DNA from: Rubrobacteraceae bacterium
GTDB taxonomy: Bacteria; Actinomycetota; Rubrobacteria; Rubrobacterales; Rubrobacteraceae
Direction of reading: 5' to 3'
Length of the DNA stretch: 64,000 nucleotides
NCBI GenBank assembly: GCA_041747155.1
Contig: JBGTFQ010000188.1
Coordinates: 1,090 to 65,089, forward strand
Position numbers and translations under genes: made by a program. Numbering within the stretch: position 1 is the first letter of the stretch; every line of letters begins with the position of its first letter. The notes beneath the pieces were generated by a model. The model was not told where the DNA came from. It saw nothing but the letters and a program-made list of their open reading frames with translations, and ran no database searches. This document shows positions 7,608 to 60,836 of this stretch, piece after piece.

Positions 7608-7635
7608 TGCGCGGGACAGCTTGGAGGTTCAGCGG

Positions 7636-8475: not shown

Positions 8476-8529
8476 TAAATGTGAAAGACCGAGCAAGTCG
8501 GATTCTGGCCTTCGGTGTAGACTGGGCCA

Positions 8530-43425: not shown

Positions 43426-44488
43426 CGTCTTCCTTTGCTCCATCGATTGGGACCTGCGCGACCACCAAAGTGCCTACGCTCGGCTTGCTAAGAACCTCCA
43501 GCTTGCCTCCGATCAAGGCGACCCGCTCTCGCATCCCGTAAAGACCGACCCGCTCACCCCAAGCGCCACCACCCACAACATTGCTTGTCTCAAAGCCGCT
43601 GCCCCAGTCCCTGATCCGGAGCCGTACAGCCCCATTCAGCCGCGAGAGCTTGATCCTTGCCCGGTACGTACCCGCATGCTTACGCACATTGGTCAGCGCT
43701 TCCTGCGCCACCCGGAAGAGCGCCGTCTCCACCTCAGCCGGAAGCCGCTCCTTACCGAGAGCCTCACAATACCTCACGTTCCAGCCTTCCTTCCGAAGCG
43801 CCTCGACCTGCATGGCAGTCGCGGCCGCTAGACCGAAGTCGTCGAGCGCTGTTGGCCGCAAGCGCCCTATGACCTGGCGTGACTCCACAACCACCCCCTG
43901 AACCAACTCCAACACCCGGCGAAGCTCTTGGCTATCAGGGTTCCTGGCTGCGTAGGTCTCCAAAAGACTGTGAGCGGCGACCGCAGTCTGGGCTAGACCG
44001 TCATGTACCTCGTAAGATACGCGGCGACGCTCCTCTTCTTGTGCGGCCAGCATTCGTCCGATCAAGTCTCGCGGCGGGCGGTCACCGGCCCCGAGCTGCG
44101 ATACAAGGGTCATCGTATCCCAGTTGGTCCACTGCTCCACGATCTTACTATCTGCGATACGAAAGATTGAGATCCCCGTCGTTGACATTTTCCTGCCGGT
44201 AGGAACTATGCCTAAAAACTCGCCTCGATGAGTACCGTGGTCCGTCCAGCGCACCACGACCCTGTCGCCTACCGAGATCTCATCCTGGATAGAAACGTGT
44301 AGGTCGGGGAAGGCGTCAATAAAGCTCGCCAGGCTCTGCTTAAAGCTTTCGAGTCCGCTTTTCTCCCAAACGGCTCTGTCGTGGCCGACTAGATCTTCGG
44401 CAAGGAAGTCATTCGCTGCTTCCAGGTTGCGCCGATTCATGACTTCTTCGTAAAAACGGCGGACTATGATTCTATTCTCCTCGGACAC
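43415..44488 (-). CDS. cytoplasmic histidine kinase with N-terminal SnoaL-like (NTF2-fold) domain
   Basis: N-terminal RRFYEEVMNRRNLEAANDFLAEDLVGHD...GDRVVVRWT (SnoaL/ester-cyclase-like). HisKA_3 H-box EERRRVSYEVHDGLAQ. HATPase_c motifs follow. No TM segment. Confidence 0.8.
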   Translation of the reverse strand: MSEENRIIVRRFYEEVMNRRNLEAANDFLAEDLVGHDRAVWEKSGLESFKQSLASFIDAFPDLHVSIQDEISVGDRVVVRWTDHGTHRGEFLGIVPTGRKMSTTGISIFRIADSKIVEQWTNWDTMTLVSQLGAGDRPPRDLIGRMLAAQEEERRRVSYEVHDGLAQTAVAAHSLLETYAARNPDSQELRRVLELVQGVVVESRQVIGRLRPTALDDFGLAAATAMQVEALRKEGWNVRYCEALGKERLPAEVETALFRVAQEALTNVRKHAGTYRARIKLSRLNGAVRLRIRDWGSGFETSNVVGGGAWGERVGLYGMRERVALIGGKLEVLSKPSVGTLVVAQVPIDGAKEDDGR

Positions 44489-44704: not shown

Positions 44705-46162
44705 CTACCAGGATACCGCGCTCAGAGCATTGATGCGTCCGTAGCCGTAGTATGGATCCCACCCGCGAGCTCCCAGGTCAACTGCGGTTCTCTCTATCCG
44801 ATAACGGATCTGGTAGTTATTAAGTCCCTGGCTGGCTAGCAACGCAGCCAGGCCCGACACATGCGGAGCAGCCATGCTGGTACCGTTCATGTAAGCGAAT
44901 TTTCCTCCAGGCGCGGTGGAAAGGATTTTTACACCAGGTGCGGAGACGTCTACATAGCTCTGGACGTTGGAGAAGTTGGCCCAGTAGTTATTTGAATTGG
45001 TGGCGGCTACGGCCAGGGATCGCGAGAAGGCCGCCGGATACTCCACCGGGTTCCCCTTCTGGGCATCATTACCGGCCGCTACTACGACCACGATACCGTG
45101 ATTCCAGGCGTTGTTGACCGCTGCCTCGTAGGCCGGCATGTATGGCATAGGACCGCCCAACGAGAGGTTGGCGACCTTTATGTTGGAATAGCTTGCATTG
45201 GAAGCGAAGTAATTCAGGGCGTTGATCGCGCTCTGAGCAGGACACCTAATCTCGTATCCGTTGACATCATAGTCGGTGTTGCCTACCCACGTTGGTCCAC
45301 AGACTTTGGCGGCCAGTATCTGGCTTCGTGGGGCGGTACCGGCGACACCGAAGCCATTGTTAGTAGATGCGGCCACGGTTCCAGCAACGTGGGTGCCGTG
45401 TCCCGAATCTGAGTAACCATAGTTGATGTTGGCTACAGAGTCACCGCTGAAGAAGTCCCATTGCCATACTATCTTGCTCCGTAAATCGGGATGGTTAACG
45501 TCGAACCCGGTGTCCAGTACAGCTACGCGTGCCCCATATCCGGTCGTCTTGTCCCATGCCAAGTGGGTTCCTGTTCTGGTGAAGTCCCACTGATACCCAG
45601 CTCGAAAGTACGGATCGTTGGGCACGAAGCTAGGCTTGGATAGGTAATTGTAGGAGACCGACGCAACGTCGGTGGAGTGTTCCAGCTCTTGCTTCTTCCG
45701 GCTCAGGTCTTCCTGGCGAGTCTTCTGGAAATCTTCATTCTTTACTTTGGAGAAAGAAAGCACATCAGCATCCACTTTGGGAAGCCTTTGTAGTTTGTCG
45801 TCGACCTTTGCGCCGACTGTATCGTTGACCTTCTTCTTTTCTGCATCAGATACATCCGACTCGTAGGTAACGATTAACTCACCTGATACATATAGATTGC
45901 CCTTTGAATCTTTGTCAGCAACTATCTGAGCGTTGCCTGCAGATCCAGCCGAACCGCTGTTTGGCATCTGCGGGAGCGGACGCTTCTCAAGCTTCGTCGG
46001 ATGCTCGGGCATCGCCTGTTTCTCTAGTTTCGGCGTCTGAGCCCATGCACTAGGCACAACAAGTACGAGAGATATAATGCAGGTCAGTACCGCTGTCACA
46101 AACTTGCGTAGCAGCGACCCATGAGTTGCATAGATACCTTCTTGGCCAACAAGTTCCTTCAT
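44705..46162 (-). CDS. secreted S8 (subtilisin-family) serine peptidase with propeptide
   Basis: Signal peptide. Catalytic motifs VAVLDTGFD, HGTHVAGT and GTSMAAPHVSG. Confidence 0.9.
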   Translation of the reverse strand: MKELVGQEGIYATHGSLLRKFVTAVLTCIISLVLVVPSAWAQTPKLEKQAMPEHPTKLEKRPLPQMPNSGSAGSAGNAQIVADKDSKGNLYVSGELIVTYESDVSDAEKKKVNDTVGAKVDDKLQRLPKVDADVLSFSKVKNEDFQKTRQEDLSRKKQELEHSTDVASVSYNYLSKPSFVPNDPYFRAGYQWDFTRTGTHLAWDKTTGYGARVAVLDTGFDVNHPDLRSKIVWQWDFFSGDSVANINYGYSDSGHGTHVAGTVAASTNNGFGVAGTAPRSQILAAKVCGPTWVGNTDYDVNGYEIRCPAQSAINALNYFASNASYSNIKVANLSLGGPMPYMPAYEAAVNNAWNHGIVVVVAAGNDAQKGNPVEYPAAFSRSLAVAATNSNNYWANFSNVQSYVDVSAPGVKILSTAPGGKFAYMNGTSMAAPHVSGLAALLASQGLNNYQIRYRIERTAVDLGARGWDPYYGYGRINALSAVSW

Positions 46163-46540: not shown

Positions 46541-47242
46541 TTAAGGTTTCCCTTCCCCATCGGTACATGGTGCGCCCGGCTCAGGGGTTTGAGGGCCTTC
46601 CGTGAAAGACTCCACGAACTGCTTCAGCCGAGGATCATCCGCTTCTTTCAGGAGCAGTTGCTTTCCCCACGCCGAGACTACCACCGGAGCAGGTAGATTA
46701 AGGTAAGGGCTGACTAACACGTAGTCCTGATCGCTCGCAACATCTTGCAAGGCTTCTGCCTGTCCTGCGGGTAGATCCGGACGGTAAGTAACCCACACTG
46801 CGCCGTGCTCCATAGAATGCACGGCCCGTTCGTCTTTGATCGAAGTTTCGTAGAACCCACAGTTCTGCCACACCGGCCAGTGGTCTCCTGCCACTGGCGG
46901 GGTTTGCGAGTAAGAGACGCTCTTCTCAACATGGTCCGGACGCTCAGGAACCTTGAAGCTTTGCACCCCCTCTGGCGGTGCTGGCCTGTCCGACGAATCT
47001 TGATCCACCTGTTCGCCGCACGAAGTCACCGCAAGAACCAAAGATACGATTGCCAAGGCCAGGATTAGCTTGCTGACTTTAGGCCATGCAATAAGCTTGG
47101 CGACTCGCTGCTTTATTGGCCGGTAAGCTCCTTTATCGTTTGCCCTGTTCAACGATGAACCGCCTGAATCACGAAACTTGCAGCACAAACGATTCGAATC
47201 ACCTACACCTATTGTGTTATCGCTAAAGTTTGGAAGCTTCAC
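46541..47242 (-). CDS. DUF3105-like exported protein
   Basis: HSMEHGAVWVTYRPDL and VVVSAWGKQL patterns. A hydrophobic anchor or lipobox-like VTSCG is present. The true start probably lies downstream of 47242. Confidence 0.6.
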   Translation of the reverse strand: MKLPNFSDNTIGVGDSNRLCCKFRDSGGSSLNRANDKGAYRPIKQRVAKLIAWPKVSKLILALAIVSLVLAVTSCGEQVDQDSSDRPAPPEGVQSFKVPERPDHVEKSVSYSQTPPVAGDHWPVWQNCGFYETSIKDERAVHSMEHGAVWVTYRPDLPAGQAEALQDVASDQDYVLVSPYLNLPAPVVVSAWGKQLLLKEADDPRLKQFVESFTEGPQTPEPGAPCTDGEGKP

Positions 47243-47254
47243 ACGGGGACCTTT

Positions 47255-47950
47255 CTATAGGGCGCGCTGGTAGAGAGCTGACACATCGTGGACGACTATG
47301 CGATGGTCCGAACCTATCGAGATATGCCCATGCCGTCTATGGAAGCCGAGGGCGTAATTAACTCTAACTCGGGAGGCACCCACCAAGGCTGCCAGATCTG
47401 TTTGCGTCATGCGCAAAGGTATAAGAACGCTACCGTCCGGAGCTGGTTCGCCATATTCTCGGGCAAAGGCTAGGAGTTGACTTGCTACCCGCCCTTGGAT
47501 ATCCAGCGCTGCGAGCGATCTCGCGTGGTTGTTGGCTAGACGTAACCTGCGAGAGAGGATACTGACCAAGTTATAAGTCATCGCTGGCATCTCTCGCATG
47601 CTTGTCCAGAAGGCGGAGCGATCCATCCAGAGTAGGACGGATTGGTCCAAGGTGATGACGGTGGCAGAACGCCCCAGACTGTCGGCTAGGCTCATCTCTC
47701 CTACTACCTCGCCCGCTCCGAGAATAGCGAGTATGACTTCACTGTCATGCACTTCGTCACTGTAGACTTTTACGCTGCCGCTGACGATTATGTAGACGGT
47801 CTCTCCGGGCTGCTCGGCCGTTATTACGTTGTATCCAGCGGGAAAGCTCTTGCGGTGCAGTAGGGTGTTCAGATTCGATAACTGCTCGGCATTCAAATTT
47901 TGGAACAGAGGAATTGTGGCCAGAGTGTTGGGCTCTTGTACAGCCGGCAT
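47255..47950 (-). CDS. Crp/Fnr-family cNMP-binding transcriptional regulator
   Basis: cNMP domain with phosphate-binding cassette GEVVGEMSL...RSATV. C-terminal HTH (QTDLAALVGASRVRVNYAL). Confidence 0.85.
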   Translation of the reverse strand: MPAVQEPNTLATIPLFQNLNAEQLSNLNTLLHRKSFPAGYNVITAEQPGETVYIIVSGSVKVYSDEVHDSEVILAILGAGEVVGEMSLADSLGRSATVITLDQSVLLWMDRSAFWTSMREMPAMTYNLVSILSRRLRLANNHARSLAALDIQGRVASQLLAFAREYGEPAPDGSVLIPLRMTQTDLAALVGASRVRVNYALGFHRRHGHISIGSDHRIVVHDVSALYQRAL

Positions 47951-47998: not shown

Positions 47999-50902
47999 TT
48001 AGCGCAAGATAGCCAGGTTCGCCTGGCGACGGGCCTCTACGACGCTCTCAAAGGCGTCGCGCAGGTCGGGGACGGTCCGCAGGAGGCTGAGGAATTGTTC
48101 GCGGTCGAGCCTCAACAAGATGCTGGGGGCGCGCGCCCGGACGGTTGCCGCACGCGGCACGTCATCCAGCAGCGCCATCTCCCCGAAGTAGTCTCCATCG
48201 CGGAGCATTGCGAGTCGCCGTTCTTCCCCAGTCGGACCAATGGTCACCACCTCCACCTCTCCGCGTGCGACTATATACAGGTTTTCGCCAGGATCTCCCT
48301 CTTCGAAGATCGTTTCGCCTTCCGTGTAACGCTCGGTAAGGAAATGATCCGCGAGTGCTGCCAGCAAAACCCCGTCCAGATTCTTGAAGAACGGTACGCC
48401 TTGCAGGCGCGTAGCTTCAAGGCCAACATATTGTTCGTTTGCGCCGATCACGAAGCCATGTTGCTGCTCCCACAAGCGATGATAGAGGCCCCTCATGCCC
48501 AGCAGTTCCTCATGGGTGCCCTGCTCGACCAGGCGGCCGTGTTCGAGCACGGCGATGAGATCATACCCGACCACGGAAGAGAGCCGGTGGGTAACGGTTA
48601 TAGTAGTGCGTTGCTGGGAAATTTTCGCTAGAGTGGAGTTGATGGCGGCCTCGGTCTGCGGATCCAGCGCGGAAGTAGGCTCGTCGAGGACGAGTATAGC
48701 CGGATCTCTCAGGATTGCCCGCGCCAGGGCGATGCGCTGACGCTGACCACCAGAGAGGCGGCCGCCGCGCTCCCCAACCACCGTCTCGTATCCTTGGGGC
48801 AACCCCACAATGAAGTCGTGGATCTCCGCTGACCGCGCCGCCTCTTCCACCTCATGATCCGTGGCGGAAAGCTTTCCCAAACGGATATTCTCTCGCACCG
48901 TGTCATTGAAGAGGAACGTATCCTGGAAGACCGCGCCGATCTGTTCCCGCAGCGACTCCTGCGAGATCTGCTTTAGGTCCTGGCCGTCCAATCTCACCGA
49001 ACCGTTTGTAGGATCGTAGAATCTCATGAGAAGGTTCAGGAGCGTGCTCTTTCCGGAGCCGCTGGGGCCAACGAAGGCTACGGATCGCCCGGCCGGGATC
49101 GTGATGCTTACCCCTTGCAGGTTTGTCTGCTCGCCAGTGTAACTGAAGTCGACCTCATCGAGGCTTATCTCCTCCGAGAGCCGCGGCGCTGGTTTCGCAT
49201 CTGTCTCGTCGGTAATTTCGGGCTGCTCCTCTAACAGTTCATTCACCCGCTGCATCCCGCCAGAGGCCTCCTGCAGCATCTGCACGATCCCGGATATTGA
49301 GCTGAGTGGCCCCGTCACGTTGCCGAGTAGTCCCTGGAAAGCGAACAGCGACCCGATAGTGAGATTCCCGCGTATAACCATAAATGCCCCAACGGCAAGT
49401 GCCACCACCTGGACAAAGGAAACGCTGAGACCCGCCGTCGTCCCCATCAAGGAACCGAGAAAGGCGCTTCGCAGGGTGCTTTGCCGGAGTCGTTCGATCT
49501 CTTCGCGAAAGCCCCCTATCGCCATCTCCTGCAGACCAAAGGCCTTGACGATAGGCTGGGCGCCGACATTCTCCTGGGCGACGCTTGCCACTCTTCCCGC
49601 GTCCTCTTGCTGTTCGTAACTCGCCCTGGCGGCCCGCCCTCCGAACAGAGCTGGTCCCAGAAACAGTATAGGCAGCACCAGCGTACACAGCAACGCCAAG
49701 CGCCACTCAAGGACGAATAGTATGACGGCACTGATACCGAAGCTGAGAACGAGGGTAGTTAGGGCGGGGATCACGCCCGTCAATGCTCCCGCGACCACCA
49801 TCAAGTCGTCGGTCATTCGGGACATCAGGTCCCCAACCCGGGAGCGGGTATAGAAACTCAAAGAGAGCCGCTGAAGATGGCCGAACATCTTTAGGCGCAG
49901 ATCGTTCAGCACGTTGGCGCTTACACGGGCGGATAGATAATCTTCGCCCAGGCTGACTACAGACTGGAAGATGAAGAAGCCGACCAACGCCCCCAGGATC
50001 AGGACGAGTAGACTGACGTTTCCCGGGCGTAAGGCATCGTCTATGAGGAATTTAGTGCTCAAAGGCAAGATTATCCCGAAGGCGGCGCCGACCAAAGAGC
50101 CTAAGATAATGAGCAGCTCCTGGGTCCAGTAGGGCCGCAGGTAAGAAAAAGAGAGCCGCAAGACACCCATCATCCCGATTACTGGAGCCCGGCGAGCCTT
50201 CAAAGCGGAGAGCCACTCCCGTCCCAGAGCGTGGACCGGCTTTCCATAAGCCGCCTCCGCCACGGGGTCTGGCGCTTCGGCGTCGAACTCCTGGACGAAC
50301 TGCTTGAATCGATCCGGACCGTAGACTTCGAGCAAGAAGGCGACGAACGAGGTGGCGACCTGATAGTAAAGTACTCCTATTGAGGCTGCGGGGCCTCGCA
50401 GCACTTCAGCCAGAAGAGGACGGCCGCCGCTCTGAGCTTCGACCAGGGCGGCGTCGAGCCTGACCGGTTCGATCTCAGTGCTCCTCTGTACGACGTACCC
50501 TAGAAGCCCATCCACGAGCGCTGTCGCCCCGGAGATCTCGACACTCACCGAAGAGGCCAACACCATCTCTACGACGGAGCGCTCCAAATCTTCCCCTGGA
50601 GCATCTGACGTATAGACAGCGTGGATGCGTCCAACCGCGTTGTCCAAGGTCCAACCGCTTCGCCTCTGGTCCGAAAGTTGCTCCTCGCTCGGCACGTCGC
50701 TCAGATAAACTGGGGTCTGAGCGTTAGGCGTATCTCGGAGCGCAAGAGCGTCAAAGACAGCGCTCCGAGTTGTCTCCAGCCGAGAGGCGATCTGCGACGC
50801 ATCTCTTTCGGCAGCAGATTCGGTTAAGAACCGTAGAACGAAGTTTGGCGAATGATGTTCGAGCCACTGTGGGAGTGGTTGATTGTCAGGGATTTGGCTC
50901 AT
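47999..50902 (-). CDS. ABC exporter (TMD-NBD) with an unknown ~240-aa N-terminal domain and a C-terminal cyclic-nucleotide-binding domain
   Basis: Walker A GPSGSGKST, signature LSGGQRQRIALARA, Walker B ILVLDEPTSALD. C-terminal cNMP domain with GDYFGEMALL...RAATV. The N-terminal domain has no Cys, so it is not a C39 peptidase. Confidence 0.85.
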   Translation of the reverse strand: MSQIPDNQPLPQWLEHHSPNFVLRFLTESAAERDASQIASRLETTRSAVFDALALRDTPNAQTPVYLSDVPSEEQLSDQRRSGWTLDNAVGRIHAVYTSDAPGEDLERSVVEMVLASSVSVEISGATALVDGLLGYVVQRSTEIEPVRLDAALVEAQSGGRPLLAEVLRGPAASIGVLYYQVATSFVAFLLEVYGPDRFKQFVQEFDAEAPDPVAEAAYGKPVHALGREWLSALKARRAPVIGMMGVLRLSFSYLRPYWTQELLIILGSLVGAAFGIILPLSTKFLIDDALRPGNVSLLVLILGALVGFFIFQSVVSLGEDYLSARVSANVLNDLRLKMFGHLQRLSLSFYTRSRVGDLMSRMTDDLMVVAGALTGVIPALTTLVLSFGISAVILFVLEWRLALLCTLVLPILFLGPALFGGRAARASYEQQEDAGRVASVAQENVGAQPIVKAFGLQEMAIGGFREEIERLRQSTLRSAFLGSLMGTTAGLSVSFVQVVALAVGAFMVIRGNLTIGSLFAFQGLLGNVTGPLSSISGIVQMLQEASGGMQRVNELLEEQPEITDETDAKPAPRLSEEISLDEVDFSYTGEQTNLQGVSITIPAGRSVAFVGPSGSGKSTLLNLLMRFYDPTNGSVRLDGQDLKQISQESLREQIGAVFQDTFLFNDTVRENIRLGKLSATDHEVEEAARSAEIHDFIVGLPQGYETVVGERGGRLSGGQRQRIALARAILRDPAILVLDEPTSALDPQTEAAINSTLAKISQQRTTITVTHRLSSVVGYDLIAVLEHGRLVEQGTHEELLGMRGLYHRLWEQQHGFVIGANEQYVGLEATRLQGVPFFKNLDGVLLAALADHFLTERYTEGETIFEEGDPGENLYIVARGEVEVVTIGPTGEERRLAMLRDGDYFGEMALLDDVPRAATVRARAPSILLRLDREQFLSLLRTVPDLRDAFESVVEARRQANLAILR

Positions 50903-51089
50903 GCCTTCGCTTCCGCACGATACTGGAGGAACAACAATAACTTAGCAGCAAACTGTGAAACTAGCCGCAATATGCCTCCCGGCTTTTTATGATCAGCCGC
51001 CTGCAAAACTGGTTCGACAAGCCTTGTACGTTAGTAGGGCCGACCGTATATTCAATTCCTTATGTTCGACTTCGCTACGCAGAGTTGAT

Positions 51090-51121
51090 GAGAGGCGGAC
51101 CTTGCGCAAGGTCCGCCTCTC
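51090..51121 (-). terminator. strong hairpin 14 nt downstream of precursor-like gene 1
   Basis: Perfect 12-bp stem GAGAGGCGGACC / GGTCCGCCTCTC with loop TTGCGCAA. The U-tract is weak. Confidence 0.5.
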
Positions 51122-51134
51122 ATCTTTGGACTAT

Positions 51135-51656
51135 CTATCGCCAACACCCATACCGATAATACTCTCGACTGCCACTAGCATTCTGCCAGTGACCAGTCCG
51201 GTACAACCTACCTCCTTGACCCTGACACCAGTCCCCGTAATACATTTGCCAATTCCGAAAGGTTGGACTGTTCCAATTGATCCATCGATGCCAGAGCCAA
51301 ACGTTGCCCTGCACATCCTCTTCGTCTCCCTCGGAACCCTCATGGACGAATGCCGTGGCGACCATCGAATCGAGGATTTCGTGCTGCCCCTCGGGAAGTC
51401 CATCGTGGAAGCCATTGAGTTTGTCGGCGAACTCTTCGATCTCTTCCTCGCTCAGTGGTTCCATGTCCTGGTTTTCTCCGACTTGCTGCGCCTCCTCAGA
51501 GCCGTCCTCCTCCGCAGCGTTTACCACTACTGAGGCCGCCTGCAACTTCTCCCTTTCAGAGAGGTTTTTGAAGAACTCATCGAACTTCCTCTGAAACTCT
51601 TCTATATCCTGCTCGTTGGGAGACTCGTTCGGGGGTGTGTTAGTTTGTTCCGTCAT
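51135..51656 (-). CDS. precursor-like protein 1 with an acidic conserved N-terminal region and an aromatic/basic two-Cys C-terminal core ending GCWR
   Basis: 173 aa, no signal peptide. Paralogue of 51804..52319. GGAAGG SD-like sequence upstream. Confidence 0.7.
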   Translation of the reverse strand: MTEQTNTPPNESPNEQDIEEFQRKFDEFFKNLSEREKLQAASVVVNAAEEDGSEEAQQVGENQDMEPLSEEEIEEFADKLNGFHDGLPEGQHEILDSMVATAFVHEGSEGDEEDVQGNVWLWHRWINWNSPTFRNWQMYYGDWCQGQGGRLYRTGHWQNASGSREYYRYGCWR

Positions 51657-51768
51657 GCCCTCTGCCTTCCTGATCCCATCCTAAAGATCGTAGAATCGTT
51701 TTACCCTAAGTCGGAATACCGCTGTACAACTTCGTCTTATTAACGACAACATTCTCCTACAGAATTGC

Positions 51769-51795
51769 AAGGGCGCGGAAAGAATCCACGCCCTT
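51769..51795 (-). terminator. hairpin 9 nt downstream of precursor-like gene 2
   Basis: AAGGGCGCGG / CCACGCCCTT stem with one mismatch, read directly. Confidence 0.35.
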
Positions 51796-51803
51796 ACATG
51801 GAA

Positions 51804-52319
51804 CTATCTCCAGCACCCAAAAGCGACCTTACCGTTCCAGGTAATATACCGAAACCTCATTCGACCACCGATGCTGCTACAGAAGTTCTCAAAGTAATTG
51901 AAGTTAGCAAAGGAAGATCCAGTTGGATAGTAGGCTTCGGTACGTTGCCAGTAGTGTCCTTGTACGTCGTCTTGGTCGTCCTCAGGCCCAACGTGAACGA
52001 ATGCCTTGGCAGCCATCGAGTCGAGGATCTGATGCTGCCCCTCGGGCAAGCTGTCGTGAAAATTGTCAAGTTTGGCTACAAAGGACTCGATCTCTTTCTC
52101 GCTCAAGGTATCCACGTCTTGCTTCTCTTCACCCTGCTCCACCTCGGTGGATCCTTCCTGAGAAGTCTCGTACTCGCCGGCTAGCACCACCATGGCCGCT
52201 GCCTCCGGCTTCTCTCTCTCAGAAAGACTCTCGAAGAACTCGTTGAATTTCCTCTCAAATTCCTGCATGTCCTGCTCGCTGGGCGACTCATTTGGTGATG
52301 TGTTCGGTTGTTCCGTCAT
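51804..52319 (-). CDS. precursor-like protein 2 (paralogue), with a divergent core also ending GCWR
   Basis: 171 aa. The N-terminal ~115 aa are highly similar to protein 1 (MTEQ.NT.PNESP.EQD..EF.RKF.EFF..LSEREK, LPEGQH.ILDSM, DVQG). The C-terminal ~50 aa are divergent. Confidence 0.7.
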   Translation of the reverse strand: MTEQPNTSPNESPSEQDMQEFERKFNEFFESLSEREKPEAAAMVVLAGEYETSQEGSTEVEQGEEKQDVDTLSEKEIESFVAKLDNFHDSLPEGQHQILDSMAAKAFVHVGPEDDQDDVQGHYWQRTEAYYPTGSSFANFNYFENFCSSIGGRMRFRYITWNGKVAFGCWR

Positions 52320-52628: not shown

Positions 52629-53468
52629 TTATGTGCCGTGTTGCACTTGTCTGTCTTTGTGCGACACGTTTGCTGAAAGAGCCCGAAGAACGGCTTTCAG
52701 TTGAAAGATGGTCAGCTCCGGATGTTTGCCGAGGATCTGCGCGGCTATTCCCGCAATGTGCGGCGCGGCGAAGCTATTGCCGGTCGAGGTGATCCAACTG
52801 CCTTTCCGCCACGCTACCCGGACGTCGATGCCCAGGGCTCCAAACTCCACCGGCGGCTGTGGGTTGTAGTAGAAGTGGTAGGGGTCTTGAACGTCGTGCG
52901 ATGCGACGGAGAGCACGGATGCGTACATCGAGGGAAAGCTCGGCACGGGCATGTTGTTTACGGCGCCTACCAGCGCCATGTTGCGGAAGTACGCGAGGTC
53001 GGTCAACTCGTGGAATACTCCGAAGTGGTCCTTCTTCGATGTGCTCAGGCTCAGGTTGCAGACGTGCATCCCGTTCTCGATAGCCCAGCGAAGTCCGGCG
53101 GCGAAGACGCCGCCGCGACCGGTCAGCATTGGCCCGAGCACCTTTACACTGTATAGCTCGCAGTCGGGCGCCAGGGAGCGGATTATTCCGGCGCAGGCCG
53201 TGCCATGCCCAAATACGTCCGTGTGCGGCTCGGTATCGTAGACCAGCCCTTCGGGACCTTCGTGTATCGCGACATAGCCGCCGATACTACCTTGTATCGC
53301 AGGATGCTCGGATTCGATGCCGCTGTCGATAACGGCCACCTTGACACCCTCGCCGGTGCTCCCTCCCCAAGCCCATTCCCGAGTGATGTCGTCTAAAGGC
53401 TGTACCGCATTGAGTGCTTGCACTTTGTCGGTGGCAAAGACCGATGACCAGGCAGGGCGCTGATCCAT
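52629..53468 (-). CDS. intracellular S8 (subtilisin-family) serine peptidase
   Basis: Catalytic motifs VAVIDSGIE, HGTACAGII and GNSFAAPHIAG. No signal peptide. ATG 53468 overlaps the GAF gene stop (TAATG). Confidence 0.8.
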   Translation of the reverse strand: MDQRPAWSSVFATDKVQALNAVQPLDDITREWAWGGSTGEGVKVAVIDSGIESEHPAIQGSIGGYVAIHEGPEGLVYDTEPHTDVFGHGTACAGIIRSLAPDCELYSVKVLGPMLTGRGGVFAAGLRWAIENGMHVCNLSLSTSKKDHFGVFHELTDLAYFRNMALVGAVNNMPVPSFPSMYASVLSVASHDVQDPYHFYYNPQPPVEFGALGIDVRVAWRKGSWITSTGNSFAAPHIAGIAAQILGKHPELTIFQLKAVLRALSANVSHKDRQVQHGT

Positions 53469-54358
53469 TACCGTATCGCCCCCATCCCACCACCCGGCTC
53501 GGGACGTGACCGGAGATAATCTGCAAACCCATGCAGGATCGCCCGACACGCTTCTAGCTCGTTCTCGCCCTGTGAGGCAACCTCTTGCACCAACCGGGCA
53601 AGTTCGAGGGTCTCTTTGAATTCGGGATCTTCTTCGACGCGCGCTGCGAAAGCATTCGCACGCCGCATCACTCCCTCCGTCGCATCGCCGTGTACGCCCG
53701 ATAGCGATTCTAGAGCCTCGCCGACGAGCGCCGCAAGGTTACGGTGGAGTTGAGATTGTTCGATGGCGACGGCGGCCTGGTTGGCGAAGAGGCCCAACGC
53801 CTCCATGTCCGACGCACTGAAGGAGTTCGCCCCTTCCTTGTCCAAAAGTTCTAGAACGCCAATGACACGGTCTTCGTAGAACAAAGGCACGCACAGTATG
53901 CTATCGGGCGCATACCCGACGCTCTGGGCGATGTCGGCGGCCTGGCGTGGATCGCCCTGAGCATCCGAGACCGCCATCGGCTGACCGCTCACGGCCACCA
54001 ATCCGGCTATGCCGTGGCCGAGCGGTACCCGAAATTCCCTGACTTCCTCTGCCTTCGAGCCGAGTGCAACCTCGAAAACCAGCTCTTCAGCATCCTCATC
54101 GACCAGAAAGAGGGCTGCGGCCCGGGCGGAGATCACGTGGGCCGCCGTCTCGACGATCATCTCCGACAGGCGCGAGGAGGCTACCGGAGAGGCAATGGTT
54201 CCGGCAACCGACAAGAGGGTGAGCGACTCCTTCAGATCCTCGGCCAACCTCTCATCTGCGCCTCGGCGACGCAAGCGCTCTATCTCTTCCGCCTGACGAG
54301 CGATGGTCTCCTGAGCCTCTGCCAGCGCATCGCGGCCTGTGGCTCCTTCTTCGTCCAC
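53468..54358 (-). CDS. GAF-domain protein with N-terminal coiled-coil
   Basis: GAF pattern AAALFLVDEDAEELVFEVALG...GIAGLVAVSGQPMAVSD...ILCVPLFYEDRVIGVLELLD. GTG start with GAGGAGGT 7 nt upstream. Confidence 0.8.
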   Translation of the reverse strand: MDEEGATGRDALAEAQETIARQAEEIERLRRRGADERLAEDLKESLTLLSVAGTIASPVASSRLSEMIVETAAHVISARAAALFLVDEDAEELVFEVALGSKAEEVREFRVPLGHGIAGLVAVSGQPMAVSDAQGDPRQAADIAQSVGYAPDSILCVPLFYEDRVIGVLELLDKEGANSFSASDMEALGLFANQAAVAIEQSQLHRNLAALVGEALESLSGVHGDATEGVMRRANAFAARVEEDPEFKETLELARLVQEVASQGENELEACRAILHGFADYLRSRPEPGGGMGAIR

Positions 54359-54598: not shown

Positions 54599-55039
54599 TC
54601 ACCAGGGCCTGAAGATGGGTATAGTTACGTTAGAGGTGAAAGCTGACGTGTAGCGGGGTGACAGGTAGAAGGACCTTCCCCAGTCGCCATACGTGTTCCC
54701 GTTGATGTTCTTCTGGGCCCGGATCGCGTAGGAATAGCCTGTAGGGCTGTTGTAGAAGTTGAACTGGCCGTAGGCGTTGGCGCGGCCCTGCTTCCAATAG
54801 GCCCAGCCGCTGCCCGACTTATACCAGTACAGACTCACGGTAGCATATGGCACTCTTTGGCCGGTGTCAGACCGAAAGACTGTACCCTGTATCTTCCTCG
54901 CGGTGGCCGCGTCGGCGTCTTTGGTCCCCAGCAGGCCCGACGAATCAGACAGCGCGCTCGCCGCCATGATCGCCAACATCGCCGCCAGCACGAAAAGCAT
55001 CCGAATACTCAGTCTCTGGGCCGTAATCGCTTCCCTCAT
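54599..55039 (-). CDS. small secreted protein, carboxypeptidase-regulatory-like beta-sandwich
   Basis: Signal peptide followed by IQGTVFRSDTGQRVPYATVSLY... Aromatic/Gly-rich. Confidence 0.5.
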   Translation of the reverse strand: MREAITAQRLSIRMLFVLAAMLAIMAASALSDSSGLLGTKDADAATARKIQGTVFRSDTGQRVPYATVSLYWYKSGSGWAYWKQGRANAYGQFNFYNSPTGYSYAIRAQKNINGNTYGDWGRSFYLSPRYTSAFTSNVTIPIFRPW

Positions 55040-55275: not shown

Positions 55276-56017
55276 ATGGCTGAACTACCTGACACAAATT
55301 CTACCTTCCTGTTCACGGATATAGAGGGTTCCACGAAGCTCTGGGAGCGCAGCGCGTCGGTGATGCAGATTGCTCTCATCCGGCACGACAAAATATTGAG
55401 GAATGCCATGGACACTCACGGCGGACACGTATTCAAGACGGTCGGCGACGCTATCTGTGCGGTCTTCGACGACGTTTCCGCCGCCCTCGGCGCGGCCTTT
55501 GTCGCTCAGCAGGACCTTGTTACTGAACCCTAGACGACAGAGGTGGGTGCTTTGGAAGTCAGAATGGCATTGCACATCGATCCGACTGAAGAGCAGGATG
55601 GCAACTACTTCGGTCCTACTCTAAACCGTGTCGCTCGGCTTCTTTCCGCCGTCCACGGGGGACAGACCCTACTCTCGCTGGCGACCAAAGTACGGGTATG
55701 CGACCGGTTGCCACCCGGGGTGTCCTTGCGAAACCCCGGAGAATGCCTACTGGAAGACCTTATCGATCCTGAGCAAGTATTTCAGGTCGTGGCTCCGGGC
55801 TTGCCCGCCAACTTTCCGCCGCTCAAGACCCTTGACGCACGGCTCAACAATCTGCCTTTACAACCTACCTCCCCTCGTCGGCCGAGAAGAGGTAGTGGCG
55901 GCCATCTACGAATATCTTCGGTACCCGGAGGTCCGCCTGCGGACGCTCACTGGTTCGAGAGGGACAGGCAAGACTCGCCTAGGCTTACAGGTGGGGGCGG
56001 AGCTACTCGACGAGTAG
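55276..56017 (+). pseudogene. decayed, 3'-truncated paralogue of the cyclase-STAND gene
   Basis: MAELPDTNSTFLFTDIEGSTKLWE... is interrupted by TAG at 55531. It continues in another frame (YFGPTLNRVARL...FPPLKTLDARLNNLPLQPT). It then shifts frame again into the Walker A region (GSRGTGKTRLGL) and ends about 56017. Confidence 0.8.
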
Positions 56018-56558: not shown

Positions 56559-57092
56559 TTACCCATCAGGTCGGGCCTCTCGGAGGGCCTCTTCCGCAAT
56601 CCTGCGGCGCTCGTCATCAGCCATCCGCGACAGCTCCTCACTCAAGATCTTTCGGCGTACGAGGCCGCGCGTGACGGCCTCCCGCACCGCCGAATCAAGG
56701 TGCTCGGGGCTGATCTCGCGGCTCCTCGCCACATCCAGGACGGTCCTGAGCGGAGTCGTGACCCCGAATCCTCCCCATGATTCGATATCCCTGTCCGAGA
56801 GGTCCGTTTTATGCAGCACCACCCCCTTCGGAGTCGGCTTCCGGAATCCTTTGGTCACGCTCAGGTGCGTATTCTCAGGCATGAGGTCGGAGAGACCGTG
56901 GAGCTTGAGCGCGGTATCGTGCGAGGCGACCGCCTGCGGCACACCTTCCCTGTTACGGCTCCACAGGCTCAGACGGGCGAGATCCTCGTTGTCTCCTTCC
57001 GGGTACCTACTAAGCCTGAACAGGCCGTGTCCCGCCGGGATCCAGTGTCCCCGCTCTCGATGGTAGAACTGCAGCCGGTAGCCGTAGCCCAC
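56559..57092 (-). CDS. AbiEi-family antitoxin / transcriptional regulator
   Basis: 177 aa. AVASHDTALKLHGLSDLMPENTHLSV...GVTTPLRTVLD is typical of the AbiEi_4 / COG5340 family. Confidence 0.7.
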   Translation of the reverse strand: MGYGYRLQFYHRERGHWIPAGHGLFRLSRYPEGDNEDLARLSLWSRNREGVPQAVASHDTALKLHGLSDLMPENTHLSVTKGFRKPTPKGVVLHKTDLSDRDIESWGGFGVTTPLRTVLDVARSREISPEHLDSAVREAVTRGLVRRKILSEELSRMADDERRRIAEEALREARPDG

Positions 57093-57099
57093 GTCGTCC

Positions 57100-57348
57100 T
57101 TATCGTCCCAAGAGCCACGTTAGGAGTTCGCTGCGCAGGTAGATGTACCGTCGTTCTGTGACGGCGTGGCGCGGCAATCCCGGTGCCATCCTTTTGAACT
57201 CCGACTCGCTTATCCGCAGGAAGTCCGCCGCTTCCTTCGCGTTCATGACCTCCTTGCCGCTGGAAAGAGCCGCCGCTACCTGCTCTACCTTCTTCAGGAT
57301 CGCGGCCTCCAGGAGAGTGTCCAGGCTGGTGTCTTGGTGGCCCTGCAC
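57100..57348 (-). CDS. excisionase-family (MerR-like HTH_17) DNA-binding protein
   Basis: MNAKEAADFLRISESEFKRM...LRSELLTWL pattern. The true start may be the internal Met. Confidence 0.6.
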   Translation of the reverse strand: MQGHQDTSLDTLLEAAILKKVEQVAAALSSGKEVMNAKEAADFLRISESEFKRMAPGLPRHAVTERRYIYLRSELLTWLLGR

Positions 57349-57437
57349 GACGCGCCCTCAGTCTTCCCTCTCCGTACCTACGTGCCTGACCTGTGGGACA
57401 GATACCCAAGGCGCGGTGTGGGCTTTATTTTGGAAAC

Positions 57438-58772
57438 TCACGACGTACCCTTCGTCGTCTGGGGTTCGTACAGGCAATCTGCGCATTCGCAGTCGAGCAG
57501 ATGGTTCAGCCACCCGTCGAGGTTGCCACCAGGCTCCTCCTTGCCTGCACGCCCGCTGCCTTGGCAATGTTGGCAACCTTGGCAATCTTGCGATGAACAG
57601 GCCGAATCACGACCGCTACTGCTCTCAGCACTGGCTAGGTTGCCAATACCGGAGTCACGGCCGTTTTGATCGTCACCGGACGCCTGCGGCATCGTCCACG
57701 TCCAGCCGTAAGCCTCCTTGGTGGACCGGATCTTGAGGCGGGCTTTGGCCCGATTGAGCGTCCTCTCCGAGACTCCTTCCCTTTTTGCATTCAGCTTGAT
57801 TTGTTTCGCCGCCATAGGGCCGTCGGAGAGCTCGTCCTTGAGAAACTCCAGAGCCTCCTCCAGCGCTGATTTCTCCTCCTCTTCCAACGGTGCCCGCATA
57901 AGCTCTGTGGCGTCTAGGGAAGACCCGCCGTGCCACTCGACGCGCGCGGCACCGTTGACGAGCGAGCTCGCGACGGCGAAGACGAGGCTCGGCATCGGTT
58001 CGGAGAGGTTTTGCTTACTGGAGGCCAGAACCCGTTTCTTGCCGTCTGGGTCGTCAGGGTCCTGGGCTACGATAAGGCCACTCCGGGCCGCGCCGATAAT
58101 GCCGATGGAGCCGCCACCGCGGTAGAGTGGGTTGCCGCCAGGCATCTTGTTGAGGTGTCGCACCAATAGCACCGCAGCGCCGGTCCTCTCGGCGAGCGAC
58201 TTGAGGCGAGCGAGGACGTGCCGGATGTCCTGGTCCTTATGGGCGTTGGTGTAGCTGCTCAGGAACGCCATGAAAGGGTCTACGATGACCAGCCGAGCCG
58301 CGACACGCTCTATCGCGCCTTCCAGGATTGCTATGTCTTCCGGCAGCGAGACTGGTCTGTTGTACTCGGATCCCACCTCTTCGGGTATTTCCGATAGCCA
58401 CACTGCACGATCGGAGTCACCTCCCGCGGCGTCGAATCGTGGCCCTACCGTGTTTGAGAAGCTGTCCTCGGCGTTCAACATCACGATGCCCGCGCCGTCC
58501 GCTTCGACACCGCAAGGAGAGCCGTCAGGAAACGCTCTGGCGATCGTGACACGAGCTGCCAGGTCAATAGAGAAGACGCTCTTTCCGAGTCCAGGGTCAC
58601 CGTCAAGCACCGTGATGTTTCCCAACGGGATTCGCCCCTCCCATAGCCACCGGACCTCATCCCGCTCCATCAACGAGAAGAGGACACCCCGCTGGTAGTC
58701 CTCCAGATTCGCATCATGACGCACAAATTCTGGCGGGACAGGCTCAAGCTTACGCCTCCGACGGCTCATCAA
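57438..58772 (-). CDS. AAA_25 / RepA-like (RecA-fold) ATPase of mobile elements
   Basis: Walker A LDGDPGLGKSVFSIDLA, Walker B-like LVIVDPF. C-terminal HTH-like region and a Cys/Gln-rich tail. Confidence 0.75.
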   Translation of the reverse strand: MMSRRRRKLEPVPPEFVRHDANLEDYQRGVLFSLMERDEVRWLWEGRIPLGNITVLDGDPGLGKSVFSIDLAARVTIARAFPDGSPCGVEADGAGIVMLNAEDSFSNTVGPRFDAAGGDSDRAVWLSEIPEEVGSEYNRPVSLPEDIAILEGAIERVAARLVIVDPFMAFLSSYTNAHKDQDIRHVLARLKSLAERTGAAVLLVRHLNKMPGGNPLYRGGGSIGIIGAARSGLIVAQDPDDPDGKKRVLASSKQNLSEPMPSLVFAVASSLVNGAARVEWHGGSSLDATELMRAPLEEEEKSALEEALEFLKDELSDGPMAAKQIKLNAKREGVSERTLNRAKARLKIRSTKEAYGWTWTMPQASGDDQNGRDSGIGNLASAESSSGRDSACSSQDCQGCQHCQGSGRAGKEEPGGNLDGWLNHLLDCECADCLYEPQTTKGTS

Positions 58773-59415
58773 GCCCCCCTGACTCTGCTGATGTCGTTTC
58801 CTGTGCCAACCGATCCGCTGCTACCTTCGCGGCGGAGATCGCTCCCAATGCGTCCATGTTTCCTGCTATTAGGTCCTCCGCTAGGCTGGGCCAGCGCCAC
58901 CAATCGGCCCACTCTCGCCACGACCGATCCAGTTCCCTCTCGTGCTCCTCGGAGTCCACGATGAGGTTGATGTACGGCAAGACGAGTGTCTTAAACAGTC
59001 GTCGCTTTAGGACGTTGCCGAGCACTTGGTACGCGACGTCACGGTACTCGGCCTTCCTCCGCGTTGCCCGGTGCCACGCCTCCGAGCGGCAGGGTAACTC
59101 GATCCCTAGCTCCAAGCTCAAACCCAACACCGCTTCCCACATCTCCGAGCAGTCGTGGAGATGGTAGTAGAGGTCGACCAAATCTGTACCTCGACCGCAG
59201 CCGAAGCACCACCATGAGTTGTTGCCCGGCCAGACGGTAAAAGAAGGCGTATTGTCTGCGTGGTCTGGCAACGGACAGCGCCCCACGAGTGTCCCTCCGC
59301 GCTTCTGCAGATCGGTAAGACCACCTGCGTATGCGATCAGCGGCACGGCTTCCTTGATGTAATCTGCGTTCTTACGGAATAGGTAGCGCCGCTCGCTGAC
59401 ACTGCTTTCTCTCAT
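58750..59415 (-). CDS. CHC2 zinc-finger primase-like protein
   Basis: CPLPDHADNTPSFTVWPGNNSWWCFGCGRGTDLVDL. The start is uncertain because the ORF is open to 59730. Confidence 0.7.
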   Translation of the reverse strand: MRESSVSERRYLFRKNADYIKEAVPLIAYAGGLTDLQKRGGTLVGRCPLPDHADNTPSFTVWPGNNSWWCFGCGRGTDLVDLYYHLHDCSEMWEAVLGLSLELGIELPCRSEAWHRATRRKAEYRDVAYQVLGNVLKRRLFKTLVLPYINLIVDSEEHERELDRSWREWADWWRWPSLAEDLIAGNMDALGAISAAKVAADRLAQETTSAESGGLDEPSEA

Positions 59416-59723
59416 AGAGGAGCCCTCGGTTTTGGATGCCCGACCCTGTTGCTTAGTTCGCCCTGGTGTATCTGCAGATCCTGATATATCTGTACCAAAT
59501 GGTAGGAATCGTTTGGCTTCCAAACGCTCTCCTTTCCTACGTGATGGTGAACACTGGACCGCTAATCTGACGCTCACCACCCCCGTATCTACTATTTGCT
59601 TCAGACGGTCTACTAAATCCATTTGTCTCCAAATTAGACCTCGCAATCTACTCTGCGGCCGAGAGTTGTTTTTGCGTCCTCCATAAGATAATATCCACAT
59701 TATGTACTTATCGTCAATGGGAG

Positions 59724-60347
59724 GTGACAAAAATATATACTTTGCGACGTAAAGTAAAGCGATGGTATTTATCGGGTCAAATGGAGTCGGACGATTTTTA
59801 CCGATGGCATCATCCTAAGTTACAAGGCTTGATGACAGTAGTGATCGGAACGTTCTTGTTGTTAGTAGCGCTCGTGCACGGTCTGTGGTGGCGGTGGTCC
59901 GAGCTATGGACTCTTGTAGCTTACCTTGCAATCTTTGCTTCTACGTTCTTGGCTTTCTATCAGACCGACAATTACTACAGAGAGCATATTGGGGTGCTCC
60001 GAGCTTGGCGGCCGAAGTATCTCTGGTTAAGCTTCTGTTTGAGTTCGCCTATAGTGCTCACTATCGGGGTGTGGTCAGGCTATTCCCTTATTGCCGGAAT
60101 AGCCGTAGGGATTCTTTGGTTGCATCTATGCGAACGCTACAAAGGTCACGGGTGGGTACTAGAGCGGGCCACAGCGGTACTGCTAGCCGTTGTGGGTCTG
60201 TCATTGGCGCTTCTACAAAATACGGCTCAGGCGGCCACTGCGATGTTAGTCATGATGTTGGCTGGAGGCATCTTGATAATCTCTGGCGCGCTATGTGAGC
60301 TGAGCCTAAGGCTTGTCGTCCGGCAGATAAAAGGAGGAAGCGAATGA
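59724..60347 (+). CDS. hypothetical polytopic membrane protein
   Basis: 207-aa ORF with about 5 hydrophobic segments in a lower-G+C segment. The start is uncertain. Confidence 0.5.
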   Translation: MTKIYTLRRKVKRWYLSGQMESDDFYRWHHPKLQGLMTVVIGTFLLLVALVHGLWWRWSELWTLVAYLAIFASTFLAFYQTDNYYREHIGVLRAWRPKYLWLSFCLSSPIVLTIGVWSGYSLIAGIAVGILWLHLCERYKGHGWVLERATAVLLAVVGLSLALLQNTAQAATAMLVMMLAGGILIISGALCELSLRLVVRQIKGGSE

Positions 60348-60703: not shown

Positions 60704-60836
60704 CCATTTAGCGCCTTGATTGAGTCTCACATGTTCTTGGGGCGAGCGTAATAATCTTATAGTGGGGCGGCCCGACGAGTTTGGCGACACGATGCGGGCC
60801 ACGCCCTCAAAACCACAAGGAGGTGAATCCTTGCAT

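Follow-up and report, generated by a model that had tools for sequence, protein, structure and literature searches.

Two neighbouring genes in a 64,000-nucleotide stretch of DNA from a Rubrobacteraceae bacterium (assembly GCA_041747155.1, contig JBGTFQ010000188.1, positions 1,090 to 65,089; hereafter the window) encode paralogous proteins of 173 and 171 amino acids (aa), which an earlier note had described as precursor-like, with a conserved leader and a variable core. The question is what these proteins, here called precursors A and B, are the precursors of, and which of the surrounding genes would act on them. We consider it reasonably probable that both give rise to ribosomally made, exported mini-proteins with an antagonistic function, which would be cut from their leaders by a subtilisin-type protease encoded nearby (here called S8i) and exported by an ATP-binding cassette (ABC) transporter encoded next to them. 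The leader/core reading of the earlier note is supported, since the same leader and junction recur on unrelated cores, including those of multi-core precursors and of precursors in DarE-like clusters. The coordinates of all features are collected in Table 1.

Architecture of the two precursors

Precursors A and B share 51% identity over their full length (BLASTP E-value 1e-57). Split at a shared DVQG motif, their leaders (117 and 121 aa) are 65% identical, with an isoelectric point (pI) of 4.05 and 32-34 Asp/Glu residues, and their cores (56 and 50 aa) are 29% identical, with a pI of 9.8 and 9.5 and 15 and 14 Trp/Tyr/Phe residues, respectively. The residue after DVQG is N or H in the window precursors, and position -2 is Gln or Glu. 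Both N-termini are hydrophilic and acidic by direct reading and contain no hydrophobic stretch, in agreement with the absence of a signal peptide that the earlier note had reported. Its description of the pair holds in nearly all other respects as well: the two open reading frames (ORFs) lie where it had placed them, the acidic leader is conserved between the paralogues, the strongly diverged cores are basic and aromatic, and the shared DVQG, a GGR motif after the first Cys, exactly two Cys and a GCWR C-terminus are seen in both proteins. Only the distance between the two Cys, given as 22-25 residues, has to be corrected to 27 positions in one protein and 22 in the other.

The segment from 51090 to 52319 has a G+C content of 0.52, versus 0.588 for the window as a whole and 0.59-0.61 in the flanking genes, confirming the lower value noticed before. 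The RNA hairpins that had been seen after each gene are real and strong, with none of 200 shuffles folding equally well. Because these hairpins stand directly 3' of each gene, there is no ORF between the precursors or directly after them. A family-profile search of the window revealed no further family members.

A previously undescribed precursor family

A word-indexed search of 5.8 billion clusters found eight relatives of the precursors, and an exhaustive phmmer search over 1.84 billion representatives (50% clustering) found 33 family representatives. The resulting family alignment (A2) has 34 members and is the basis of the conservation counts and of the structural model given below. The leader is acidic in all 34 members, with a net charge between -8 and -28 (mean -18), and all 34 contain the junction [DE]V.[GAP][HYNF]. 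The core is 48-67 aa long in every member and has a mean charge of +4, with 22% Trp/Tyr/Phe versus 5% in the leader. Each core contains exactly two Cys, 21-34 positions apart, in a protein that is otherwise Cys-free, and the alignment shows a core scaffold of W.W, P, C, GG, G and GC(W). The organization into a conserved leader and a variable core, which the earlier note had drawn from two proteins, is thus the same in the entire aligned family. In comparisons of homologues, the core exceeds the leader in nonsynonymous substitution rate (dN) by a factor of about 1.5 to 5.5; precursors A and B, for example, differ by a dN of 0.90 in the core versus 0.20 in the leader.

The leader is an internally duplicated helical hairpin: a unit of about 40 aa with the pattern F..KL..F...LP..E...L occurs in it twice (37% identity over 41 aa), and profile searches detect two domains per leader. 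A profile built from the leader only (A7) retrieved 117 clusters, all of them unannotated or annotated as 'hypothetical protein' and none with a Pfam domain.

Scans of both precursors with Pfam, NCBIfam and PADLOC assigned no family (NCBIfam: no match at E<=0.01), and neither precursor matches the NCBIfam profiles of the NHLP (TIGR03793) or Nif11-derived (TIGR03798) leaders. Pfam gave nothing but coiled-coil noise on all 34 members, and a sequence search of the PDB with the family profile found nothing below an E-value of 0.16. A profile search of genome and metagenome contigs with the alignment of the close family (A1) revealed no related loci, and a locus search with a further alignment (A3) recovered two genomic loci. 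The family is previously undescribed: it stands outside Pfam and NCBIfam, and a literature search yielded no paper on the family or on the module described here.

Predicted structure of leader, junction and core

The AlphaFold2 (AF2) model of precursor A has a mean predicted local distance difference test (pLDDT) score of 82.5. The leader is modelled as four helices (residues 15-30, 34-51, 70-86 and 91-106), which form two hairpins with a pLDDT of about 90. It is followed by residues 106-117, the only disordered stretch of the model (pLDDT below 50), which coincides with the junction. The core is compact, with the arrangement beta(120-127)-alpha(133-146)-beta(150-158)-beta(165-172) and a pLDDT of 92-97, and the same beta-alpha-beta-beta fold is obtained when the core is modelled alone (pLDDT 91.9; predicted template modelling score 0.71). 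The two invariant Cys are located near the helix end and in the last strand of the core model, where they presumably form a disulfide.

Foldseek searches with the full and the core-only models against the PDB, and with the core-only model against BFVD, gave no match at E<=1e-3. The best match, the C-terminal DUF1471 domain of YdgH (E 0.07; template modelling score 0.39), represents a generic small alpha/beta fold, and no defensin-like or subtilisin-propeptide-like structural match to the core was found by Foldseek. The earlier note had held that a C-terminal region matching a known structural or enzymatic domain would speak against its proposal; Foldseek, Pfam and NCBIfam all came back empty. 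It had also called the core hypervariable. The variability stands (29% identity), but the picture of a floppy peptide does not, as the core is a confidently modelled mini-domain with a conserved scaffold.

The same cassette around distant relatives

The window precursors are encoded between the ABC exporter and S8i, a candidate leader peptidase. S8i aligns to residues 20-242 of mature subtilisin BPN', and its catalytic triad (Asp48, His88 and Ser232) is invariant in four orthologues; with the S8 fold and the Asp-His-Ser triad it belongs to the subtilases (MEROPS S8). The gene for a GAF-domain protein directly precedes it, and the stop codon of the GAF gene overlaps the start codon of S8i as TAATG (53466-53470), an arrangement of translational coupling. 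The ABC exporter consists of an N-domain of about 250 aa, a middle part with a transmembrane and ATPase core of the MsbA/HlyB/NHLM type, and a C-terminal cyclic nucleotide-binding (cNMP) domain, in which FGEMALLDDVPRAATVRA is, by direct reading, a canonical phosphate-binding cassette of the protein kinase A (PKA) kind. Pfam detects no Peptidase_C39 domain at the N-terminus of the exporter, and an HExxH motif is absent from the N-domain in three orthologues.

We compared this organization with that around relatives whose precursors are 31-56% identical to the window proteins. L003 encodes a Crp-type regulator, a cyclase-STAND protein, GAF, S8i, a precursor and an ABC N-domain; L006 encodes a DUF3105 protein, a precursor, the ABC exporter with its cNMP domain, S8i and GAF; L007 contains two tandem precursors, S8i, GAF and DUF3105; and L002 contains a Crp-type gene, a precursor, the ABC-cNMP exporter and DUF3105. 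In the contig P0042, the ABC-cNMP gene adjoins the precursor and a gene for a 164-aa protein comes next. Across the loci of such distant precursors, S8i is 63-85% and GAF 56-74% identical, and both are far better conserved than the precursors. Orthologues of the ABC exporter adjoin family members in L002, L003, L006 and the P0042 contig and occur in many S8i loci; likewise, L002, L003 and many S8i loci contain a Crp-type gene. According to the earlier note, homologues that never co-occur with proteases or exporters would have counted against its proposal. We found GAF-S8, ABC-cNMP or both in L002, L003, L006, L007 and P0042.

DUF3105 is so far linked specifically to the two-Cys core subfamily: it accompanies this subfamily in the window, L002 (13756-14283, - strand), L006 (8738-9790, + strand) and L007 (2666-3325, - strand), and was not detected in the S8i metagenome loci described below. 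In L006, a second S8 gene adjoins DUF3105.

Two side observations concern the precursor genes of these relatives. In L004 (5699-6196, + strand), a GCWR-type precursor is immediately followed by a second one with the same two-hairpin leader, an EVSGH junction and a six-Cys core, LSGLLWCRYTCNIYGTRGSCALYGYYSAVYQQTGGCAKVCCYRYRW; one locus can therefore hold different core types. In L002 (1372-4491, + strand; 6978-8930, - strand) and L004 (14-3178, + strand), proteins of 650-1054 aa with CLIPPER and/or RTX-type HemolysinCabind domains are encoded next to precursor genes; the window has none.

One leader and junction on unrelated cores

Because S8i is so well conserved, it was chosen as metagenome query instead of the precursor; one scan gave 190 relatives, and 80 loci were fetched. 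GAF is located directly upstream of S8i, on the same strand, in 50 of the 56 loci with enough upstream sequence. Profile and jackhmmer searches revealed ORFs in the S8i loci that have the same hairpin leader and junction but unrelated cores, mostly immediately upstream of GAF-S8i. A regular-expression scan of 27 S8i loci without a profile match gave no further convincing hairpin-leader ORFs.

One group of cores is found in L034, L049, L057 and L078, where precursors of about 100 aa ending in ...IGPVKIWTFRW are encoded next to a radical SAM/SPASM enzyme with scores of 445.9 bits for DarW and 383 bits for DarE. Gly/Pro-rich precursors of 94 aa form another core group with the same leader. The loci L090 and L089, which were traced from the clusters of the leader-only profile, contain cassettes of ABC(cNMP), a B12-type radical SAM enzyme, a radical SAM enzyme, a precursor, GAF and S8.

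Multi-core precursors contain one hairpin leader followed by three to seven repeats, each of which opens with the junction motif: (D/E)EV(A/E)(A/G)H precedes Lys/Ala/Pro-rich units of 16-20 aa. In L084 the repeats open with one DDVAAH and six DEVAAH, most of them followed by GLAAAKVTAAKATSKAT, and L080 and L082 have EVEGH six times, each followed by a Lys/Ala/Pro-rich unit; L086, L085 and L076 are similar. The background frequency of the strict motif in all ORFs of the loci is 9.3e-5 per residue. Some multi-core precursors have distinct C-terminal tails (...SYKLI in L084, ...CYKVI in L085).

Since the same hairpin leader and junction thus stand on unrelated cores, which is the best evidence at hand for a true leader and for DVQG as its processing site, the junction is most likely the S8 cleavage site. 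That the hairpin serves as leader and [DE]V.[GA][HY] as the recognition site of S8i appears likelier, judged from the sequences, than any alternative that we could construct.

Further occurrences of the junction and of the hairpin are of note. A 91-aa ORF directly downstream of S8i in L050 (10524-10799, + strand) and L052 (10569-10844, + strand) has a leader that the hairpin profile missed; this leader ends in GEVEPY and is followed by a 10-residue core, AMSDNGIFYY. The occurrence of GEVEPY on a different leader suggests that junction recognition by S8i is independent of the leader type. In addition, the DarW/DarE-like radical SAM enzymes of L034, L049, L057 and L078, and a methyltransferase of L034, begin with the hairpin leader motif (e.g., AAERLESFETTLAPDEQTALRALLRRA) in their N-terminal part, with domain E-values of 1e-7 to 1e-11. 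As it also occurs on enzymes, the hairpin may be a shared docking module and not just a substrate leader.

Proposed maturation route and alternative explanations

We propose that the acidic two-hairpin leader would keep the cationic aromatic core soluble and inactive and would dock to the maturation and export machinery. S8i, made together with its GAF partner and probably controlled by it, would cut at the motif [D/E]-V-x-[G/A/P]-[H/Y/N] in the disordered linker (DVQG-N and DVQG-H in the window). The freed core of 50-56 aa would then leave via the adjacent ABC transporter, whose non-catalytic N-domain is a likely substrate receptor, a role modelled on that of C39-like domains in certain type I secretion exporters. 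The cNMP domain of the exporter, the Crp regulator and the nearby cyclases may tie export to cyclic AMP (cAMP) or cyclic GMP (cGMP). Outside the cell, the two invariant Cys would form one disulfide and lock the beta-alpha-beta-beta fold, resulting in a mature mini-protein of 6-7 kDa that is most likely antagonistic (bacteriocin-like). The fast divergence of the core, the tandem paralogues and the cationic Trp/Tyr-rich chemistry point to such a role; judged from sequence, the window products are probably antimicrobial or signalling. As the window contains no recognisable modifying enzyme, they are probably unmodified, disulfide-bonded secreted mini-proteins of about 6-7 kDa, and for the same reason the label of a peptide that is synthesized on the ribosome and then modified post-translationally (RiPP) is not established at this locus.

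Several points weigh against this proposal. Among the 31 S8i loci with at least 7 kb of flank, a leader-bearing ORF is found in 12 and an ABC-cNMP fusion likewise in 12, and the S8i-GAF pair may therefore have other substrates or roles. S8i is cytoplasmic, so that the producer would have to tolerate a free cationic core in its interior if the cut came before export and were not coupled to transport, and no immunity gene is recognisable among the window ORFs; immunity could be provided by the DUF3105 protein or the leader itself. The N-domain of the exporter has a weak match to Peptidase_MA_2 that is below threshold (E 0.0075). Synonymous sites are saturated; therefore dN/dS is not estimable and positive selection on the core is not demonstrable. 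Finally, the AF2 model was built from 34 sequences only, and both post-gene hairpins lack the U-tract of a canonical intrinsic terminator.

Identical processing and export would also suit mini-proteins that act as signals or morphogens (pheromones for quorum sensing or kin recognition, or developmental peptides that are surface-active) instead of toxins, in which case the divergence of the cores would be pherotype diversification. We regard this as unlikely. It is favoured by the cyclic-nucleotide context, which comprises the cNMP domain of the exporter, Crp, the cyclase-STAND genes with a remnant and a two-component system, and by the lack of a visible immunity gene in the window. On the other hand, cationic Trp/Tyr-rich disulfide cores are typical of antimicrobial proteins, as is generally known, and across the loci no histidine kinase or other receptor gene is linked consistently. 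HetC, the best-studied peptide exporter with a cNMP domain, is thought to export a developmental signal (PMC10986499), which again fits signalling, but the sister loci use the module for DarE-like cyclophane peptides, the chemistry of the antibiotic darobactin (PMC9055067). Slightly less likely still is that the cores are modified, making them true RiPPs, by an unrecognised or unlinked enzyme such as the DUF3105 protein. In the loci compared, DUF3105 accompanies the two-Cys subfamily; its invariant H..EHG suggests a metal site, and a preprint notes DUF3105 genes in uncharacterised RiPP clusters (10.1101/2023.10.26.563470); moreover, the same module of leader, S8i and GAF serves radical-SAM RiPP clusters. 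Against modification stand the compact core of 50-56 aa (pLDDT 92), which needs no cross-links besides the disulfide, and the region between 44.7 and 56 kb, in which no known modifying-enzyme gene is found: none was recognised for radical SAM, YcaO, LanM/LanKC, P450, MNIO or methyltransferase proteins.

We think it improbable that the precursors are never cleaved or exported and instead act as cytoplasmic adaptors, inhibitors or regulated substrates in a cAMP-controlled GAF-S8 switch. S8i and GAF have no export signals, both halves of the precursor are confidently folded in the AF2 model, and 19 of the 31 long S8i loci have no detectable leader ORF, all of which would agree with a cytoplasmic role. 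However, a protein whose only Cys are two invariant ones fits a disulfide outside the cytoplasm, evolution of the core is much faster than that of the leader, and the core is unlike subtilisin propeptide inhibitors (Foldseek). The family is also consistently linked to an exporter-type ABC protein, and the short peptides, repeated cores and radical-SAM substrates that follow the same leader and motif elsewhere cannot be regulatory domains. A wider version of the proposed precursor and export route, which we offer tentatively and with somewhat less than even confidence, is that the GAF-S8 pair and the cNMP-ABC exporter form a portable, second-messenger-gated platform for the maturation and export of several unrelated product classes, namely DarE-like radical-SAM peptides, multi-core Lys/Ala-rich repeats and unmodified two-Cys mini-proteins. 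This platform would recognise a single type of helical-hairpin leader and the cleavage signal [D/E]-V-x-G-[H/Y]. The hairpin would then serve generally for docking, bringing precursor, enzymes, protease and transporter together, and the window cores would make up a fold family of their own, consisting of secreted antimicrobial mini-proteins.

Comparison with known systems

In function, the window system most resembles the NHLP/Nif11-type precursors, which are associated with ABC export systems (Haft et al. 2010, PMC2887384) and have structured, 'protein-like' leaders (PMC12537861). Both have long, folded, conserved leaders, variable cores, tandem paralogues and a dedicated ABC exporter, and in both one leader family serves several core chemistries. 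The window leader differs in being a duplicated helical hairpin without an NCBIfam profile match, the junction is [DE]V.[GA][HY] and not Gly-Gly, and a separate cytoplasmic S8 protease with a GAF partner would stand in for the transporter's C39 domain. HetC of the multicellular Nostoc PCC 7120 is likewise an ABC exporter of the peptide type with a fused cyclic-nucleotide-binding-type domain, and this domain is required for function (PMC10986499). In HetC, the cNMP domain is N-terminal, is combined with an active C39 protease and binds ppGpp (guanosine tetraphosphate) in vitro (PMC10986499), whereas the cNMP domain of the window exporter is C-terminal with a PKA-like PRAATV cassette, and its N-domain is non-catalytic and MA-like.

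LanP of class I lanthipeptides and QhpE of quinohemoprotein amine dehydrogenase maturation are, as proposed for S8i, S8 domains that remove the leader from a ribosomal precursor; QhpE is also small and cytoplasmic, and its step precedes that of an ABC-type exporter. With the QhpE model of NCBIfam, S8i reaches 94.8 bits, below the cut-off of 165 bits, and no Lan or Qhp genes are present in the window. To our knowledge, neither an obligatory GAF partner nor a [DE]V.[GA][HY] site is a feature of LanP or QhpE.

The daropeptides are similar in that the sister loci, with leader, S8i, GAF and ABC-cNMP, encode DarW/DarE-like enzymes and Trp-rich cores (...KIWTFRW); the window differs from them in having no radical SAM enzyme and in cores that are folded domains of 50-56 aa. 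As described in PMC9055067, the darobactin cluster has no known leader protease, and the main text of that paper names neither a protease nor a subtilisin. The window precursors do not belong to the class II double-glycine precursors of peptidase-containing ABC transporters (PCAT): their leaders have 117-121 aa versus about 15-30, the junction is not Gly-Gly, Gly-Ala or Gly-Ser, and C39 is absent. With regard to RiPPs, leader and core are gene-encoded, removal of the leader by proteolysis is suggested by the conserved linkage to S8i and the repeated junction motif, and no co-encoded modifying enzyme is recognised at the window locus.

In halocin C8-type precursors, one gene encodes an N-terminal immunity/pro-region and a C-terminal Cys-containing toxin. 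Other haloarchaeal precursors are activated by extracellular halolysin, with the N-terminus as the active part (PMC12893001). As proposed for the window precursors, these proteins have a large pro-region that is proteolysed to release a small antimicrobial protein, with a serine protease as activator, but there is no sequence similarity, and the system of PMC12893001 has no dedicated cytoplasmic S8, GAF or ABC module.

Two other classes were considered and rejected. For a Pycsar-like or other defence system, PADLOC gave only generic domain-level matches (subtilase, cNMP domain and ABC ATPase), with the precursors, GAF and DUF3105 unmatched, and the loci do not share a conserved cyclase. A type VII secretion/mycosin system was dismissed on a score far below cut-off and the lack of Ecc genes.

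Other genes in the window

The Crp/Fnr-type regulator has a weak match to NCBIfam TIGR03896, 'bacteriocin-type transport-associated protein'. The adjacent DUF3105 protein is probably a lipoprotein. Its invariant residues are His104, Gly119-x-His121 and His142-x-x-Glu-His146-Gly, which together resemble a metal-binding site; the protein may act as an enzyme of maturation, in immunity or as a receptor. The secreted S8 protease is a possible extracellular processing enzyme, and its membership in the system is uncertain. The 146-aa protein encoded just upstream of GAF is probably outside the system, because no homologue was detected in any related locus.

The cyclic-nucleotide and signalling context consists of cyclase-STAND genes (39288-42197) and a two-component system (42718-44488). 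At 55282-56005 (+ strand), we found an adenylate-cyclase-STAND remnant with 62% identity to the intact copy (969 aa) at 39288-42197; an in-frame stop and a frameshift near 55865 interrupt the remnant, which is truncated at about residue 290. The remnant adjoins genes of the mobile-element type (56559-62929), encoding a DnaG-type zinc-ribbon primase, an AAA_25 protein and a TrwB-like coupling protein. In the relative L003, the cyclase-STAND gene beside the cluster is intact.

Table 1. Positions of the precursor genes, their parts and neighbours in the window, and of multi-core precursors and hairpin-bearing enzymes in metagenomic S8i loci.
Feature	Locus	Position	Strand	Description
Precursor A	window	51135-51656	-	173-aa ORF; family-profile match E 3e-59; leader 1-117, core 118-173
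Precursor B	window	51804-52319	-	171-aa ORF; family-profile match E 3e-53; leader 1-121, core 122-171
DVQG junction motif, precursor A (residues 114-117)	window	51306-51317	-	putative processing site; inside disordered AF2 stretch
DVQG junction motif, precursor B (residues 118-121)	window	51957-51968	-	putative processing site; motif in 34/34 members
Core A	window	51138-51305	-	56 aa, pI 9.8, 7.1 kDa; Cys144 and Cys171; core-only AF2 model
Core B	window	51807-51956	-	50 aa, pI 9.5, 6.1 kDa; two Cys; aligned with core A
RNA hairpin directly 3' of precursor A	window	51087-51124	-	17 bp, perfect; -34.1 kcal/mol, z -8.9
RNA hairpin directly 3' of precursor B	window	51766-51798	-	14 bp; -26.4 kcal/mol, z -8.0
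S8i	window	52629-53468	-	279-aa subtilisin-type catalytic domain without signal peptide or prodomain; Pfam Peptidase_S8 E 8.6e-26
GAF-domain protein	window	53468-54358	-	296 aa; Pfam GAF E 3.9e-20; directly upstream of S8i
ABC exporter	window	47999-50902	-	967 aa; Pfam ABC_membrane, ABC_tran, cNMP_binding
Crp/Fnr-type regulator	window	47255-47950	-	cNMP-binding and helix-turn-helix domains (Pfam)
DUF3105 protein	window	46541-47242	-	Pfam DUF3105 E 4.5e-47; lipoprotein-like signal LAVTSCG
Secreted S8 protease	window	44705-46162	-	signal peptide and fervidolysin-type propeptide (Pfam)
146-aa protein	window	54599-55039	-	signal peptide; just upstream of GAF gene; CarboxypepD_reg-like E 3e-4, below threshold
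Multi-core precursor	L084	8333-9055	+	directly upstream of GAF-S8i
Multi-core precursor	L080	6608-7234	+	directly upstream of GAF-S8i
Multi-core precursor	L082	114-728	+	directly upstream of GAF-S8i
Multi-core precursor	L086	8529-8864	+	directly upstream of GAF-S8i
Multi-core precursor	L085	1704-2132	+	directly upstream of GAF-S8i
Multi-core precursor	L076	7194-7700	+	directly upstream of GAF-S8i
Hairpin-bearing enzyme	L034	568-3870	-	
Hairpin-bearing enzyme	L034	3670-5958	+	
Hairpin-bearing enzyme	L049	2441-3943	-	
Hairpin-bearing enzyme	L057	2609-4498	-	
Hairpin-bearing enzyme	L078	7158-8771	+	

Significance

The system is not categorically new, but it is unannotated and apparently broad, and it contains a protease-motif pair that is directly testable, along with a second-messenger connection that is out of the ordinary. 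The S8i-GAF pair, the hairpin leader and the [DE]V.G[HY] motif provide a handle for genome mining that is independent of product class and already retrieves DarE-like radical-SAM clusters, multi-core precursors and unmodified disulfide mini-proteins, all of them annotated as 'hypothetical protein'. A leader peptidase with a short, portable motif would, if confirmed, be useful in RiPP engineering, where leader removal is often the bottleneck. The combination of an exporter with a cAMP/cGMP cassette, a GAF-partnered protease and Crp would make it possible to test whether a second messenger controls how peptides are matured and secreted, and the cationic, Trp/Tyr-rich cores of 6-7 kDa without a structural relative would be candidate antimicrobial scaffolds. 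If the proposed reading is true, precursors A and B belong to an uncatalogued family of ribosomal peptide or mini-protein precursors with a dedicated leader peptidase and exporter, and the window represents one branch of this new leader family and processing-export module that makes unmodified, disulfide-bonded mini-proteins.

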